From contig CACKVM010000001.1 of the NCBI GenBank assembly GCA_902603625.1, forward strand, positions 85,647 through 149,646: a stretch of DNA of 64,000 bases, read 5' to 3'. This document shows, in pieces, positions 45,862 through 52,953 of the stretch. The stretch comes from an uncultured Pelagibacteraceae bacterium (GTDB lineage: Bacteria; Pseudomonadota; Alphaproteobacteria; Pelagibacterales; Pelagibacteraceae). The notes below the pieces were generated by a model. The model searched no databases. It saw only the letters and a program-made list of their open reading frames with translations, and was not told where the DNA came from. The translations under genes were made by a program, and so were the position numbers. Position 1 is the first letter of the stretch. Each line of letters starts with the position of its first letter.

Positions 45862-47046
45862 ATGATTTTTTTTAAAGATAAACAAATAAAACAATATTTA
45901 ATTATTTCAGGCATAAGTTTGATTGTTTCATTTTATTTATTTGAAGGATATTTAACTTTTTTTAAGGGCCAACTTTTTAAAGAGCAACTTTATGAAAAAC
46001 AAACTGGAAAAAAATTTGATACAAGGACCAAAAATCAGATTTATGAAGATATAAAAAAAAATAACAATAAAATTAAACTTACTTCACACAGAAGTTATTA
46101 TTTAAATAAAAATTTCCCAATTCATCCTTTATCTGGAATTTCAAATTCAGAAACAATACATTGTAATGAAAATGGATATTATTCAATTTATAAAAGTGAT
46201 AGATATGGATTTAATAATCCAGATGAAGAATGGTATAAACAAGAAATTGAGTACCTTTTGGTTGGAGACTCATTTACTCATGGAAATTGTGTAAACAGAC
46301 CAAATGATATTGCTTCTGTTTTAAGAATTTTATCAAATAAAGCAGTTCTAAATTTAGGACAAAATGGAAATGGACCTCTTTCAGAATATGCGACTTTAAG
46401 AGAATACTTAAATTCAAATGTAAAAAAAATTTTATGGATTTATTACGAGCAAAATGATTTAGAAGATTTAAAAAAAGAGTTGAGTGATAAAAATTTAATA
46501 AATTATTTGAATAATTTGAATTTTTCTCAAAATCTAAAACTTCATCAAAGTAAAATTAACAAACTTATCGAGGATACACTTGATGTAGAAATTAAAAAAC
46601 ATTATACTGTTGTTGAAAAAAAACTAAAAAAAAAAAATCAGAAAATAAAATATAAAATTTTAAAATTTATAAGACTAGATAAAACAAAAAAAGTATTTTC
46701 GAATTATCAGATAAAACAGGAACCAGTAAATCAGACTTTTGAAATAAGTAAATTTAAAGAAATTCTTAAACAAACAAAAGAATTAGTAGAAAAAAATAAT
46801 TCAAAATTATACTTTGTATATTTGCCTGAATATAATCGTTACAAAATAAAATACGATAACACAAATTATAATTTGATAAAAAATATTGTAACAGAATTAA
46901 ATATTCCTTTTATTAGTATACATAATGAAGTTTTTAAAAAATATAAAAATCCATTAAAACTCTTTCCATTTGAACAGTTTGGTCATTATAATATTGAAGG
47001 TTATAAAAAAGTTTCAGAGACAATCTATAAATTTACTAAAGATTAA
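45862..47046 (+). CDS. Membrane-anchored SGNH/GDSL-like protein
   Basis: N-terminal TM; DRYGFNN, VGDSFTHG (block I), NLG, EQND, C-terminal GHYNIEGY. Confidence 0.7.
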   Translation: MIFFKDKQIKQYLIISGISLIVSFYLFEGYLTFFKGQLFKEQLYEKQTGKKFDTRTKNQIYEDIKKNNNKIKLTSHRSYYLNKNFPIHPLSGISNSETIHCNENGYYSIYKSDRYGFNNPDEEWYKQEIEYLLVGDSFTHGNCVNRPNDIASVLRILSNKAVLNLGQNGNGPLSEYATLREYLNSNVKKILWIYYEQNDLEDLKKELSDKNLINYLNNLNFSQNLKLHQSKINKLIEDTLDVEIKKHYTVVEKKLKKKNQKIKYKILKFIRLDKTKKVFSNYQIKQEPVNQTFEISKFKEILKQTKELVEKNNSKLYFVYLPEYNRYKIKYDNTNYNLIKNIVTELNIPFISIHNEVFKKYKNPLKLFPFEQFGHYNIEGYKKVSETIYKFTKD

Positions 47047-47065
47047 ACCTGCTCTCCACATAATA

Positions 47066-47330
47066 AGAAGGGGCGTTCTGTTGCCAGGTGCCCCGAACCC
47101 CGTTTACTTAATTAACAAGTTAATTAAGCAGCAAGTGCGTAACTTTCGTTAGCAATTATAAAGTAGTCCTTTTCGGAGGAACAATTCCGAACGAAAGAAT
47201 AGCCTTTAGTCACCCGTCGAATCTAGTTCACCCCCATAAGTTGTAAATGGTGGAGGTGGTGGGTACTGCCCCCACGTCCGCAATGGTTATTACGAAATTC
47301 GTTTATCGTCATAGTTGGAAAACCAACTTT
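47066..47330 (-). ncRNA. ssrA: Two-piece (permuted) tmRNA; outer ends approximate
   Basis: Acceptor piece ends ...GGGGGCAGTACCCACCACCTCCACCA at 47248; 12-nt intervening segment; coding piece starts GGGGGTGAA at 47235; tag ANESYALAA* at 47153-47124. Confidence 0.93.
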
Positions 47331-47369
47331 ATTAATATAAAAGGAATTACATTAGATTCAATAACAATC

Positions 47370-48318
47370 ATGAAATTAACAAAAGAGCAATCAGCAGAGA
47401 TTAAAATCCAGCAATCACAATCTAACCAAACAAAAAAGAGTTACAGCTCCAGAGTTAGAAAAAATTCTTTATGAGGCAGTCCCCGCATTAGATCATGGTT
47501 TTGTTCGTGTTATTGATTATATGGGGGATGACACTTCTATTGTTCAATCAGCAAGGGTTTCTTATGGAAAAGGCACAAAACAAGTATCCACTGACAAAGG
47601 TTTAATTAAATACCTAATGCGTCATTGGCATAGTACTCCTTTTGAAATGTGTGAAATTAAATATCACATAAAGTTACCTATTTTTATTGCACGTCAATGG
47701 ATTAGACATAGAACAGCAAATGTTAATGAATATTCAGCTAGGTACTCGATTTTAGATAAAGAGTTTTATTTGCCTGAAAATAACAATTTGGCTGCACAGT
47801 CGACGAGTAATAGACAGGGAAGAGGAGATGTCTTAGAAGGCGAACAAGCTAAAGAAGTTTTAGAACTTTTAAAACATGATGCTGAAAGAACCTATGCAAA
47901 CTATGAAAAAATGCTTAATCAAAGATATGATGGATCAACTATAGATGAAAATAAAAAAGGTTTAGCAAGAGAACTTGCAAGAATGAATTTAACTTTAAAT
48001 ACATACACTCAGTGGTATTGGAAAACAGATTTATTAAATTTAATGAATTTTTTAAGACTAAGAGCTGATAGTCATGCTCAATATGAAATAAGGGTTTATG
48101 CAGATATTATGCTTAATACTCTCAAAAGATGGGTTCCAATTACTTTTGATGCTTTCATGGATTATAGAGTCGGAGGAACAGAGGTTTCTGCAAAAGGTAA
48201 AATAATAATACAAAAGCTTGTCAAAGGTGAAAAAGTTGATATTGAAAAGTCTGGATTATCAAAAAGAGAGTGGAATGAGTTAATGGTTGCTTTAGATTTA
48301 AAAGATAAATTAATTTAA
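47370..48318 (+). CDS. thyX: FAD-dependent thymidylate synthase, split by one extra A in an A6 run at 47432-47437 (probable sequencing error)
   Basis: [30 protein letters not shown]; removing one A joins MKLTKEQ...[15 protein letters not shown]...[13 protein letters not shown]. Confidence 0.9.
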
Positions 48319-49358
48319 TTTTTGTAATATTCGAAAAGTATTTTTTTTAATTCTGGATATACTATTTTTGATATTTCAATAGACCCTTTCTTATTTGTAT
48401 GTACAGTGTCAATAAATGAGTTATTTAATGGAGCTTTAACAAGCTCATCTAATTTAATGATATCTAAATTATTTTTTTTTGAAAATTTTTTTAGTTCTTC
48501 ATTTAGGAAGAATAGTATTCTTTGACCATTAATATCATATTTAATTTGAGTTATAAAAATTGGTTTAATATTCAGGATCTCAAGCTGATCTAGTAACTTT
48601 TTTAAATTAATATTAAAATTATCGATTACTTTTTTTTCTTCAATACTCACATTTTTATAATTTGATTTTGCATTTTCGTATGAAACATATTCATTACTAC
48701 TCAATTTCTTTATTAATTCCTCATCATTTGTAAAATATTTATCTCTTTGTGAGAAAAAAAAATTATCTTTTATATATTTTGCTTTTTCATAAAAAAAACT
48801 TTTTTGTGTTATATTCCAATATATTTTCTCAAATAGATTTAGATCATATTTAAAGTCATGCCAACGATCTGGTTTTATTCCTCTATCATTTATACCCAAA
48901 TAATAAATAATTATATCTGGTTTGAAATTAGGAATTTTTGAAAACCAAGATTTAAATTCTTGAATATGCCCTTTGAGAGATTTTCCAGATAGACTTGCAT
49001 TATAAATTTTTAGGTTTGAGCCATCTTGATTTAAATAAGAATTTAAATTCCCAACGATTGTGTCATCATAATTTTTGTACATCTCATCACCTGTACTTCC
49101 ACCATTAAATATAATCTTAATTTTTGATGCATCATATTTTTCATAGATGTTATTATTTTCTCTGAAACCATAAAAATCTCTTAAATAAGTAGTTTTTTCA
49201 TTATCATAATTAAAAACTATTTTTTGAACTCTTTTTCCTCTTAGTTGAGGTCCAAAATTATATTCTTTAAACCAATAACCAAAAATAAGATCACTACAAA
49301 TTATTAAGGTAAAATATACACAAATATTAATTAAAACTAATTTTGTATGTTTAAACAT
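48315..49358 (-). CDS. Membrane-anchored SGNH/GDSL-like protein
   Basis: N-terminal TM; YGFR, FNGGSTG (block I), YLGIND (block III), DTVH (DxxH block V). Confidence 0.72.
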
Positions 49359-49477
49359 TATTATGAATTATAGTATTTACTTAATAATTTAATTTAATAA
49401 TTTGTCAAAATTATTTGTTTTAATTTACATGTTTAATTTAATAAAAGACTTTATAAATTTAAATAAAAAAAAATATT

Positions 49478-49864
49478 ATGATGAATAAAATAAAATTACC
49501 TTCAAACCGTAACTTTGGAATTGTTTTTTTTGTGGTTTTTTTTGTGATAGCCTTTTGGCCAGTTTTAAATGGAGAAAATATAAGAATTTGGTCGATATTA
49601 CTTTCATTAATATTTTTATTTTTGGGTATTATAAATTCGAGAATACTCACTCCATTAAATATAATTTGGATGAAGTTTGGTATCATTTTAGGAAGTATTA
49701 TTTCTCCTCTAGTTATGGGCTTTGTATTTTTTGGAGTCATTACTCCAATAGGACTTTTAATGAGAATATTTAAAAAAGACCTATTAAATCTGAAAATTAA
49801 TACAGAAAAATCGTATTGGATTGAAAAAGATAAAATTAAAAGTAGTATGAAAAATCAATTCTAA
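49478..49864 (+). CDS. SxtJ-family membrane protein
   Basis: PSNRNFGIVF, PLNIIWMKFGIILG, FFGVITPIG, SYWI, terminal MKNQF. Confidence 0.85.
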   Translation: MMNKIKLPSNRNFGIVFFVVFFVIAFWPVLNGENIRIWSILLSLIFLFLGIINSRILTPLNIIWMKFGIILGSIISPLVMGFVFFGVITPIGLLMRIFKKDLLNLKINTEKSYWIEKDKIKSSMKNQF

Positions 49865-49866
49865 CA

Positions 49867-50016
49867 ATGGATTTTATTTTAGAAATTATAAATTTTATAA
49901 TGGTGAGAAAAAAATATTGGTTAGTCCCTATTATATTATTTTTATTAATGTTTGGTGGTATAATAATAATCACTCAAGGTTCTGCAGTAGCTCCATTCAT
50001 TTATACAATTTTTTAA
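49867..50016 (+). CDS. DUF5989/SxtK-like small membrane protein, copy 1 (49 aa; not in ORF track)
   Basis: Hand-translated: MDFILEIINFIMVRKKYWLVPIILFLLMFGGIIIITQGSAVAPFIYTIF*. Confidence 0.88.
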   Translation: MDFILEIINFIMVRKKYWLVPIILFLLMFGGIIIITQGSAVAPFIYTIF

Positions 50017-50023
50017 TTAGATA

Positions 50024-50173
50024 ATGGAATTTATAAAAGAATTTATTCAATTTTTAAAAATTAGAAAAAAGTATTGGTTATTACCCATATTAATAGTTCT
50101 TGTAGCTTTTGGAGCATTAATAATTTTATCTCAAGGATCTGCGGTAGCGCCTTTCATATACGCAATTTTTTAG
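50024..50173 (+). CDS. DUF5989/SxtK-like small membrane protein, copy 2 (49 aa; not in ORF track)
   Basis: Hand-translated: MEFIKEFIQFLKIRKKYWLLPILIVLVAFGALIILSQGSAVAPFIYAIF*. Confidence 0.88.
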   Translation: MEFIKEFIQFLKIRKKYWLLPILIVLVAFGALIILSQGSAVAPFIYAIF

Positions 50174-50178
50174 ACTAA

Positions 50179-51102
50179 ATGTCAGAATATATTAAAAAAC
50201 CATTTAAAAAAGAAAATGGGATTTTTTCTTTTACAATTACAGATTTAGAGACAAAGAAAGTTACAGAATTTTATAAAGTAACACCTTTTCCCAATTATAA
50301 AGATGATGATAACAAACAAACAATATTAGAAAAAGGGAATAGAAATATTTTAGCCCAAAAATTTAAAAATTTTATAGGATATAAAAAAAAGGTTTTAGAA
50401 GTTGGATGTGGAACAGGACAGTTATCAATATATTTTTCATTAGGAACAAACAATAAAATTGTAGGCTTAGATCCAACTATCGAGTCTTTAAAACTTGCAA
50501 AAAATTTTGCAATAAAAAACGAGATTAATAATATTGAATTAGTAAATGCTGATATTTTCGATGATGTTTTAATTGAAGATTATTTTGATTTTGTTTGGTG
50601 CAACGGGGTGTTGCATCACACAAAAAACCCTTATAAAGCTTTTGAAATTTTATCAAAATCTTTAAAAAATAATGGTTATATTTTAATCGGACTTTATAAT
50701 AAAATTGGAAGGTTAAGAACAATATTTAGAAAATATTTAAGTAAATTATTTGGAGTTAAATTTTTAGAAATTTTTGACCCAACTCTTAAAAACTTAAAAA
50801 TAAGTAATGAAGAGAGAAAATCATGGATTAAAGATCAATACTTTCACCCAATTGAAAGTCTTCACACTTTAGATGAAGTTTTGCGATGGTTTGATAAGAA
50901 TGACATAAAATATATTAATTCAATACCTTCATGCGATTTTGAAATATCTCAAAATTATGACAATTTATTTGAAGAAAATCCAAGGGGTAGTTTTTATTCT
51001 CGATTAATCAATCAAATTTTCATGATTTTTAATAGACTTGGATCTGACGGAGGTTTATTTATTGTAATTGGAAAGAAAAATATTAAAAACACTTCGAAAT
51101 AA
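50179..51102 (+). CDS. Class I SAM-dependent methyltransferase
   Basis: VLEVGCGTGQ, VGLD, CNGVLHHT. Confidence 0.85.
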   Translation: MSEYIKKPFKKENGIFSFTITDLETKKVTEFYKVTPFPNYKDDDNKQTILEKGNRNILAQKFKNFIGYKKKVLEVGCGTGQLSIYFSLGTNNKIVGLDPTIESLKLAKNFAIKNEINNIELVNADIFDDVLIEDYFDFVWCNGVLHHTKNPYKAFEILSKSLKNNGYILIGLYNKIGRLRTIFRKYLSKLFGVKFLEIFDPTLKNLKISNEERKSWIKDQYFHPIESLHTLDEVLRWFDKNDIKYINSIPSCDFEISQNYDNLFEENPRGSFYSRLINQIFMIFNRLGSDGGLFIVIGKKNIKNTSK

Positions 51103-51114
51103 AAAAAGATTTGA

Positions 51115-52953
51115 ATGAAATCAATTTTAGGTATTTCTGCTTTCTATCATGATAGTGCAGCATCAATTTTAATTGATGGAAAAATAATCGCTGCTGCTCA
51201 AGAGGAAAGGTTTACTCGAATAAAACATGACAAAAGTTACCCTCATAATGCTATAGAATTTGTTTTAAAATTTGCGAACTTAAACTTGAGTGATATCGAT
51301 CATATAGTTTTTTTTGAAAAACCATTCCTTAAATTTGAAAGATTGTTAGAAACTTATGTAGCATTTGCACCCAAAGGTTTTAAATCATTTTGTAAGGCAA
51401 TGCCAATATGGTTAAGTGAAAAACTTTTTCAAAAAACGTTTTTATTTGAAAAATTAAAAAGTCATGACAAAAATTTTAATGATAAAAAAAAAATCATGTT
51501 TTCTGATCACCACCTAAGCCATGCTGCAAGCGCTTTTTATCCATCTCCATTTAATGAAGCTATAGTTCTCACAGCAGATGGAGTAGGCGAGTGGGCCACA
51601 ACAACTGTTGCTTTAGCTAAAAATAATAAAGTTGAAGTAATTAAAGAAATACACTTTCCACATTCACTGGGATTATTATATTCAGCATTTACTTATTATA
51701 CTGGTTTTAGAGTTAATAGCGGTGAATATAAATTAATGGGTTTAGCACCCTATGGAAATCCAATCTACAGAGATAAAATTCTAAATAATCTAATTGATAT
51801 TAAAGATGATGGCACTTTCAGGCTTAATCAGGATTATTTTAATTATTCTACCGGATTAACTATGACCAATAAAAAATTTGATGATTTATTTGGTCAACCA
51901 CCGAGAAAACCAAATGACGAGAAATTAACTCAATTTCATATGGATATAGCAGCCTCAATTCAGTTGGTGACAGAAGAAATTATGATTAAGTTATCAACTT
52001 CAATTCAAAATGAATACGGTATTAAAAATTTATGTCTTGCAGGCGGTGTAGCTTTAAATTGTGTAGCAAACGGAAAACTCATAGAAAAAAAAATTTTTGA
52101 TAATATTTGGATACAACCTGCTGCTGGAGATGCAGGTGGATCTTTAGGAGCTGCTTTAGCATTGTGGTATAATGAGTTTAATAATCCTAGAAAAGTAAAT
52201 CCTAAAGATGATATGCAGGGATCATACTTAGGTCCAGAATTTAACAATAATCAAATTGAGGAGAGCTTAAAAGAAATAGGAGCAGTTTTTGAATTTAAAA
52301 GAGAAGATGAATTAATTTTAAAAACTGCAGAAGATTTATCTAAAGGCAAAGCAGTTGGTTGGTTCCAAGGAAGAATGGAATTTGGGCCAAGAGCACTAGG
52401 CGCTAGGTCTATACTTGGAGATCCAAGATCATCATCAATGCAAAAAAATTTAAATTTAAAAGTCAAGTATAGAGAAAGTTTTAGACCATTTGCACCATCT
52501 GTATTAAGAGATGATTTAAGTGATTGGTTTAATATAAATATTGATAGCCCTTATATGCTTTTAGTATCAAATATAAACTCTAAAAAATGTTTTCCAATGT
52601 CTGAAGAACAACAAAAATTATTTGGTATAGATAAATTAAATGTAAAAAGATCTGAGATACCAGCTGTAACTCATGTTGATTATTCGGCAAGAATTCAAAC
52701 AGTCCATGAAAATACAAATAATAAATATTTTAATCTTTTAAAAAAATTTAAAGAAATTACTGGTTGTCCTGTATTGGTTAATACTTCATTTAATGTAAGA
52801 GGTGAACCCATAGTTAATACTCCAAAAGATGCATTTAATTGTTTTATGGGAACAGAACTAGACACTTTGGTTATAGGGAATTATTTTTTGAAAAAAAAAG
52901 ATCAAGATCAATCACTTAAAAAAGACTACAAAAAATCATTTGAGCCTGATTGA
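51115..52953 (+). CDS. O-carbamoyltransferase (NodU/CmcH/TobZ/SxtI family)
   Basis: YHDSAA, HHLSHAASAF, DGVGE, GEYKLMGLAPYG, GGVALNC, EFGPRALG, RESFRPFAP, NTSFNVRGEPIV. Confidence 0.95.
   Translation: MKSILGISAFYHDSAASILIDGKIIAAAQEERFTRIKHDKSYPHNAIEFVLKFANLNLSDIDHIVFFEKPFLKFERLLETYVAFAPKGFKSFCKAMPIWLSEKLFQKTFLFEKLKSHDKNFNDKKKIMFSDHHLSHAASAFYPSPFNEAIVLTADGVGEWATTTVALAKNNKVEVIKEIHFPHSLGLLYSAFTYYTGFRVNSGEYKLMGLAPYGNPIYRDKILNNLIDIKDDGTFRLNQDYFNYSTGLTMTNKKFDDLFGQPPRKPNDEKLTQFHMDIAASIQLVTEEIMIKLSTSIQNEYGIKNLCLAGGVALNCVANGKLIEKKIFDNIWIQPAAGDAGGSLGAALALWYNEFNNPRKVNPKDDMQGSYLGPEFNNNQIEESLKEIGAVFEFKREDELILKTAEDLSKGKAVGWFQGRMEFGPRALGARSILGDPRSSSMQKNLNLKVKYRESFRPFAPSVLRDDLSDWFNINIDSPYMLLVSNINSKKCFPMSEEQQKLFGIDKLNVKRSEIPAVTHVDYSARIQTVHENTNNKYFNLLKKFKEITGCPVLVNTSFNVRGEPIVNTPKDAFNCFMGTELDTLVIGNYFLKKKDQDQSLKKDYKKSFEPD

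Follow-up and report, generated by a model that had tools for sequence, protein, structure and literature searches.

In DltX and in MBOAT tails, the C-terminal hexapeptide FXYXXF is described as the motif that shuttles acyl groups (PMC12148441). According to the same account, PatA carries an acetyl-tyrosine and PatB takes acetylated FIYANF, the tail of Neisseria gonorrhoeae PatA, as donor (PMC12148441). DltX of L. plantarum is listed with the tail FIYNEF, and DltX tails are reported to bind DltD non-covalently with a micromolar dissociation constant (PMC13653941). In papers on saxitoxin, sxtI, sxtJ, sxtK and sxtL are grouped together; SxtJ and SxtK are given there as 'unknown', SxtI is proposed to act with SxtJ and SxtK in carbamoylation, and SxtL is proposed to be a decarbamoylase. 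In L. wollei, sxtI is described as truncated and sxtL as absent. Here, a gene cassette that shares features with these systems is analysed. It lies in a window of 64,000 nucleotides from an uncultured Pelagibacteraceae bacterium (assembly GCA_902603625.1, contig CACKVM010000001.1, positions 85,647 to 149,646), and encodes a carbamoyltransferase (CT), SxtJ, two DUF5989 peptides, a methyltransferase and a divergently transcribed, membrane-anchored SGNH protein. On balance, this cassette probably constitutes a trans-membrane carbamoyl relay, which would work like Dlt and Pat and provide a third route of trans-membrane acylation. A literature search, with subscription papers and bioRxiv supplements outside its scope, found no paper that proposes such a relay or links DUF5989, SxtJ, CT and SGNH proteins, and none that mentions DUF5989 by name.

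CTs of the TobZ type convert carbamoyl phosphate and ATP to carbamoyl-AMP. The cassette enzyme belongs to the same family as CgnI, TobZ, NovN, GdmN and WapO, all of which are described as acting on their acceptors without SxtJ or a shuttle peptide. WapO is described as a stand-alone putative lipopolysaccharide carbamoyltransferase and is proposed to act on the lipopolysaccharide core. The gene for the crocagin protein CgnD accompanies that for the carbamoyltransferase CgnI, and CgnD itself is reported to act slowly as a leader protease.

As in DltB-DltX-DltD, a single-pass microprotein with a C-terminal FxYxxF accompanies a membrane-anchored SGNH protein in the cassette. Unlike that system, the cassette has neither an MBOAT nor a carrier protein, and its donor is a soluble, ATP-dependent CT with SxtJ. 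With PatA-PatB and AlgI-type pairs it shares the terminal hexapeptide and a similar spacing between basic residues and tyrosine, but its tail is a free peptide instead of being fused to an MBOAT. A single substitution separates the tail FIYAIF from FIYANF of PatA. Four gene types are common to the cassette and sxtI-J-K-L, namely a carbamoyltransferase, SxtJ, a 54-residue protein and a GDSL lipase. DUF5989 probably corresponds to SxtK, judging from the size of the latter (165 bp) and from position. In contrast to the saxitoxin clusters, no other saxitoxin gene was identified in positions 36000-64000 of the window, and roughly one in two of the sampled Pelagibacteraceae carries the module. The features of shuttle systems found here are an FxYxxF at the C-terminus after a transmembrane segment, an invariant tyrosine and a partner SGNH protein with intact Ser/His that is anchored or exported.

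The C-terminal tyrosine of DUF5989 peptides

In both 49-residue peptides, RKK precedes a single hydrophobic segment, and FIYTIF or FIYAIF stands directly before the stop codon, as the preliminary description of the locus, made from the letters alone, had reported. The genome is 68% complete, and only two of its 839 open reading frames have F-x-Y-x-x-F ends, which are these two peptides (0.1 expected from composition). The same description had made the idea of a shuttle depend on conservation of the tail tyrosine across DUF5989. Of 139 unique homologues, taken from all loci, 138 have this tyrosine at position -4, the sole exception being a frameshifted open reading frame. It is never replaced by phenylalanine, though the final phenylalanine is changed to tyrosine four times, and both tyrosine codons are used for it (88 and 58 cases). 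Proline occupies position -7 in 137 of the 139 homologues, and position 17 is variable (Tyr, Phe, Trp, Arg). The tyrosine is also invariant in 82 aligned peptides, in 80 of which it follows the last basic residue by 30 residues; the same distance is 24-32 residues in seven MBOAT tails. Because the basic cluster precedes the single transmembrane segment and neither Lys nor Arg is listed for any of the last 12 positions, the positive-inside rule suggests that the C-terminus faces outward.

The peptide is widespread, occurring in SAR11 and in many other phyla. The DUF5989 profile matches 5,990 protein clusters at E <= 0.001, and the peptide was found in 80 of 151 Pelagibacteraceae genomes, a tally that counts one unpublished genome (G054). 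The DltX profile PF12459 matched neither the peptides, in the Pfam search, nor anything else in the genome, and the ESM Atlas gave no usable peptide match after exclusion of DUF5989. Apparent SxtJ-peptide and peptide-CT fusions among the 120 matches listed were rejected as gene-calling or sequencing artefacts, with Gln, Arg or Lys at the stop position; unfused members occur in two of the clusters looked up.

Carbamoyltransferase, SxtJ and SGNH proteins

The preliminary description had named the CT as a NodU/CmcH carbamoyltransferase. The family assignment stands, but the enzyme scores 150.5 bits against an equivalog cut-off of 1000 (NCBIfam NF041651) and is therefore not NodU itself. Its N and C domains were both found and the His-x3-His, Asp and Asp site is complete; His132, His136, Asp155 and Asp339 are invariant in 74 CT sequences. 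By analogy with TobZ, this is presumably the metal-binding site. A hydrophobic lid contains K69, P70, R76, P86, G88, W99 and K103, likewise invariant in the 74 sequences, and its hydrophobic fraction is 0.46 in 52 peptide-linked CTs versus 0.34 in 86 others. In a FastTree phylogeny built without locus L199, all 52 peptide-linked CTs fall inside one clade of 58 (support 0.997).

SxtJ was modelled with helices at residues 10-31, 37-52 and 54-97, and comparison with the PDB gave a best Z of 5.5 and no clear match. Among 36 sequences, there was no invariant column and no conserved His. A search for longer forms returned one match, which is weak evidence in either direction. Since SxtJ lacks invariant columns and a conserved His, it is an unlikely catalyst, and the CT is left as the candidate tyrosine-loading enzyme. 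The earlier suggestion that SxtJ takes the place of the MBOAT thus finds no support; SxtJ is likely a scaffold keeping the CT at the membrane.

The AlphaFold model of the divergent SGNH protein has the SGNH fold (predicted local distance difference test score, pLDDT, 93). Its best structural match is CgnD (8a2n; Z 16.9, root mean square deviation 4.0, 224 residues aligned), tied within 1 with 4rw0 (Z 16.0). Ser88 and His320 are invariant in 119 SGNH homologues, and the protein is predicted to serve as periplasmic carbamoyl acceptor and transferase. An N-terminal hydrophobic segment is present in 68 of 69 SGNH proteins from peptide loci (one segment in 55, three in 12, two in 1), so that the number is odd in 67 of the 68 anchored proteins. 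A second anchored SGNH gene, past thyX and beyond the span of the preliminary description, is added here. Its product matches Lipase_GDSL_2 weakly (E 0.0024, Pfam) and is one of just two genome matches to the cassette-SGNH profile, of which it is also a member; it is likely an alternative final transferase.

Co-occurrence and gene neighbourhoods

Co-occurrence was examined in 44 near-complete genomes of the window's genus, comprising 24 peptide-positive genomes and 20 of 23 peptide-negative ones. These genomes are kin rather than independent samples, hence counts are preferred over p-values. A CT of the cassette clade was present in 24/24 peptide-positive and 0/20 peptide-negative genomes. Full-length SGNH proteins (E <= 2e-23) were found in 24/24 and 2/20, respectively; a weak match of about 80 residues to a short universal SGNH protein, seen in 44/44 genomes, was treated as background. 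In 18 of the 24 peptide-positive genomes, the SGNH and peptide genes are no more than 10 kb apart. An MBOAT was found in 2/24 peptide-positive and 0/20 peptide-negative genomes, and both of these MBOATs bear tails of their own; none was found in five others, the window's 68% complete genome included. With MBOATs in 2/24 and 0/5, the cassette is placed outside the MBOAT-SGNH class.

A survey of 80 loci drawn from numerous phyla detected the peptide in 78, SxtJ in 69, the CT in 70 and an SGNH protein in 50; restricted to the 45 full-length loci, the counts were 45, 43, 43 and 31. The SGNH profile was derived from these same loci, which makes the 80-locus SGNH count partly circular. When 40 cluster representatives of 75 polytopic open reading frames were scanned, one MBOAT was found.

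A control centred on the CT used a phylum sample of 300 genomes. From the 149 CT matches listed, with 35 more outside the listing, removal of contig-start and duplicate cases left 134, which were evenly thinned to 120 loci. CTs with at least 900 bits on the clade profile, a threshold fixed after inspection of the scores, were counted as clade CTs. The 41 clade CTs were accompanied by the peptide in 39 loci, SxtJ in 35, SGNH in 16 and an MBOAT in 1, whereas for the 79 other CTs the counts were 0, 0, 2 and 3. SGNH genes occurred in 15/39 peptide loci versus 3/81 others. An enrichment of SGNH genes near these cassettes, on which the preliminary description had made the relay depend, is borne out as a strong tie to the peptide in the genome profiles, the CT-centred loci and the split cassettes described below. 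MBOATs are rare with the cassette, and those inspected have their own tails.

In genome G456, SxtJ and CT lie 1.5 Mb away from an adjacent SGNH and peptide pair. In G455, they lie 22 kb from the peptide, which is near an SGNH gene and an MBOAT with its own tail. A single metagenome-assembled genome contains a CT-SxtJ fusion of 738 residues (L202:5039-7255), adjoining a peptide that ends in PYIYAMF. The split cassettes and this fusion place SxtJ on the side of the CT and the peptide on that of the SGNH protein. In G097 (L116:4257-10186), an MBOAT and SGNH pair lies within the cassette, at the place of the window's second peptide and methyltransferase.

Six members of the CT clade have no adjacent peptide. 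Four of these have an SGNH neighbour, and this neighbour is anchor-less in 4/4, a small sample; the peptide is wholly absent from two of the genomes (G311 and G359) and encoded elsewhere in the other two. Such a pattern fits a shuttle that would be needed only for an outside SGNH protein, with direct handover from CT to SGNH otherwise. In one complete genome without a DUF5989 match, an anchor-less SGNH protein is fused to a degenerate CT (L140:8339-11545), with an intact CT and SxtJ alongside.

The methyltransferase clade (at least 150 bits) was found in 17/141 peptide loci and in none of the peptide-free loci examined. It was present in 5/6 loci with two peptide copies versus 12/135 with one. 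The methyltransferase is an optional accessory of peptide-bearing loci, and second peptide copies go with it. In three loci (L018:7039-7986, L019:9078-10028 and L082:7042-8001), a protein with six transmembrane segments, several His motifs and no Pfam match is encoded between the methyltransferase and a peptide gene. It presumably resembles the membrane di-iron enzymes.

The cassette in the window

SxtJ, the two peptides, the methyltransferase, the CT and the divergent anchored SGNH gene were all confirmed in the arrangement first described (Table 1). The best relatives of the window belong to the Pelagibacteraceae. The cassette forms an insertion in a region of core genes (ppdK, thyX, mrp and hflKC), with thyX between the two SGNH genes, and its insertion sites vary among SAR11 genomes.

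Table 1. Features of the carbamoyltransferase cassette in the window (positions 45862-52953) and loci of the sister cassette.
Feature	Position	Strand	Properties
Second N-terminally anchored SGNH protein	45862-47046	+	394 residues; GDSF and GHYN motifs
Single-anchor SGNH protein	48315-49358	-	347 residues; Lipase_GDSL, 28.2 bits (cut-off 23.6), Pfam; GGST 86-89, GIND 155-158, DxxH 317-320; Ser88/Asp317/His320
SxtJ, small three-helix membrane protein	49478-49864	+	Pfam SxtJ, E 2.5e-10
DUF5989 peptide 1	49867-50016	+	49 residues; full-length DUF5989, E 1.8e-22; ends FIYTIF
Tyr46 codon, peptide 1	50002-50004	+	
DUF5989 peptide 2	50024-50173	+	49 residues; full-length DUF5989, E 1.5e-24; ends FIYAIF
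Tyr46 codon, peptide 2	50159-50161	+	
S-adenosylmethionine-dependent class I methyltransferase	50179-51102	+	Pfam Methyltransf_31
CmcH/NodU/TobZ-family O-carbamoyltransferase (CT)	51115-52953	+	Carbam_trans_N and Carbam_trans_C (Pfam)
Hydrophobic lid of CT	51310-51435	+	residues ~66-107
Sister cassette loci	L129:4418-7925, L115:4311-9079, L255-L334		

Sister cassette and other related loci

A sister cassette was first seen in two DUF5989-negative genomes. It encodes a divergent CT of 564 residues, a ferritin-like protein with a C-terminal transmembrane segment, an SGNH protein and a 53-residue peptide with a single transmembrane segment. This peptide has no Pfam match and ends in PFTYIAI or PFTYIAL, with its tyrosine in the register of DUF5989. 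In 80 metagenome loci with close CT relatives, it was present in 56 of the 57 that had room after the CT, and neither DUF5989 nor SxtJ was matched in the 80. The sister SGNH protein matches the cassette SGNH profile with a probability of 96%, and starts with a signal-peptide-like segment and paired cysteines. The ferritin-like protein has no detectable homology to SxtJ (probability 0.2%) and was not found in 401 phylum genomes, a set without a positive control. The sister CTs and the cassette CTs are not sister groups in the tree. The SGNH and ferritin-like genes are apparently head to head with overlapping starts.

Single or scattered cases of other arrangements were also observed. A CT, a transmembrane segment and an SGNH domain are fused in one protein of 932 residues in G077 (L115:5064-7862), a single case. 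A Gram-negative genome encodes a Dlt-like trio (L168:9146-11738) of a 407-residue MBOAT without a tail motif, an anchored SGNH protein and a 55-residue peptide with one transmembrane segment, which has no Pfam match and ends in FLYGRF. A different CT clade directly adjoins SGNH-like and MBOAT genes in two loci (L117:5189-9568 and L147:3376-7725), possibly representing an MBOAT-mediated carbamoyl relay. Cassette-type SGNH genes near AT3-SGNH fusions in glycan islands were found in two genomes without CT or peptide (L118:6259-7587 and L119:6062-7345).

Proposed mechanism and alternative explanations

In the proposed relay, SxtJ, together with the hydrophobic lid of the CT itself, would keep the CT on the inner membrane face, and the CT would carbamoylate the C-terminal tyrosine of the DUF5989 peptide. 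From the tyrosine, the carbamoyl group would move to the catalytic serine of an SGNH protein that faces the periplasm, and this protein would transfer it to an acceptor outside the cytoplasm, probably a glycan of the cell surface. For loading, our best guess is that the hydrophobic tail may fold back into the bilayer after a Gln-Gly-Ser break and meet the CT lid in a thinned membrane patch formed with SxtJ. The genes, the motif with its conservation and the patterns of co-occurrence are observed; we infer every covalent step, the topology, the route of the tail to the CT and the acceptor. An envelope glycan is a plausible acceptor, and 5/9 distant SGNH genes read sit among surface-glycan genes.

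Several observations weigh against such a relay. The loading step is the strange part of the system, for there is no evident path from a cytoplasmic CT to an outward tail. Conservation spans the entire peptide, with W18 and P21 also invariant among the 82 aligned sequences, and the invariant tyrosine could therefore be structural. Similarity of the peptides to the seven MBOAT tails appears weak and largely confined to the last columns; hhalign gave a weak probability of 62% (E 7e-5) in one run and 23% in a second, above 100/100 column shuffles, which fell to 5% without the last seven columns. Homology between the 53-residue peptide and the DUF5989 profile is weaker still (2-3%, very weak). The absence of invariant SxtJ columns, the kinship of the 44 genomes and the fixing of the clade threshold after the scores were seen count on the same side. 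Two peptide-negative genomes (G047 and G137) keep a strong SGNH protein without a CT, and 24/39 peptide loci have no SGNH gene in the ~13 kb read. The top fold match of the SGNH protein, CgnD, is a reported slow protease. The charge bias at SGNH anchors is modest (42 fit an inside N-terminus, 10 are neutral and 16 oppose it; n = 68). No glycan island surrounds the window cassette, and one of the five SGNH genes among glycan genes adjoins an AT3 gene, possibly its real partner. Finally, the link of a cytoplasmic methyltransferase to the system hints at cytoplasmic chemistry on the acceptor.

This last point also fits an explanation in which SxtJ and the peptide do no more than anchor the CT or activate it. 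Carbamoylation would take place on the cytoplasmic side, on an acceptor that is either small or linked to a lipid, and the periplasmic SGNH protein would remove or edit the group. Membrane crossing would then need no explaining. The published proposals point the same way, with SxtI, SxtJ and SxtK carbamoylating and SxtL decarbamoylating, and that literature interprets the loss of both sxtI and sxtL from L. wollei along these lines. WapO, as a stand-alone putative enzyme, provides a precedent that also speaks against the relay. We nevertheless consider this explanation unlikely. It predicts neither the terminal FxYxxF nor the absence of Tyr-to-Phe replacement, and it fails to predict that the peptide stays with SGNH instead of CT, or that the SGNH anchor is lost where the peptide is missing. 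In addition, the 79 other CTs do without both SxtJ and the peptide.

The linkage of peptide and SGNH protein would be accounted for, and the loading problem sidestepped, if docking of the tail in the SGNH site serves to assemble CT, SxtJ, peptide and SGNH protein into one complex, while the carbamoyl group crosses on a lipid or small-molecule carrier and the tyrosine is not acylated. The non-covalent, micromolar binding reported for DltX tails and DltD is consistent with docking of this kind (PMC13653941). However, the loci contain no conserved carrier gene, the tail hydroxyl is strictly kept, and the tyrosine is described as acylated in both characterised systems with the motif (PMC12148441), all of which make this arrangement quite improbable. 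It is also conceivable, but very improbable, that the relay is real and that the group is a modified carbamoyl (e.g. N-methylated or oxidised) or the acceptor an exported small molecule or protein in place of a glycan. A dedicated methyltransferase clade, the His-motif membrane protein that L018, L019 and L082 encode between their two peptide copies, the ferritin-like protein of the sister cassette and the position of the window cassette away from glycan genes would suit such a variant. The methyltransferase, in contrast, is present in just 17 of 141 peptide loci, and more than half of the nine distant SGNH genes lie among surface-glycan genes.

Significance of the proposed relay

The carbamoyl relay may also be stated more broadly, in a form whose chances we judge to be evenly poised. 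Besides MBOAT and AT3 there would be a third class of trans-membrane acylation, with direct loading of a free Tyr-tail microprotein by a cytoplasmic enzyme across a thinned membrane patch. This class would exist in at least two divergent forms, one with DUF5989 and SxtJ and one with the 53-residue PFTYIA peptide and the ferritin-like protein. It would carbamoylate the surface in about half of the SAR11 sampled, and SxtL-type SGNH proteins would be the final carbamoyl transferases.

If the relay is confirmed, two large uncharacterised families would gain a mechanism, and no polytopic acyltransferase would be needed to bring an acyl group across the inner membrane. The way in which SxtL-like proteins are usually interpreted would be reversed. 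In the most abundant bacteria of the ocean, the cassette would also provide a surface modification that varies between strains and may have a bearing on phage recognition.

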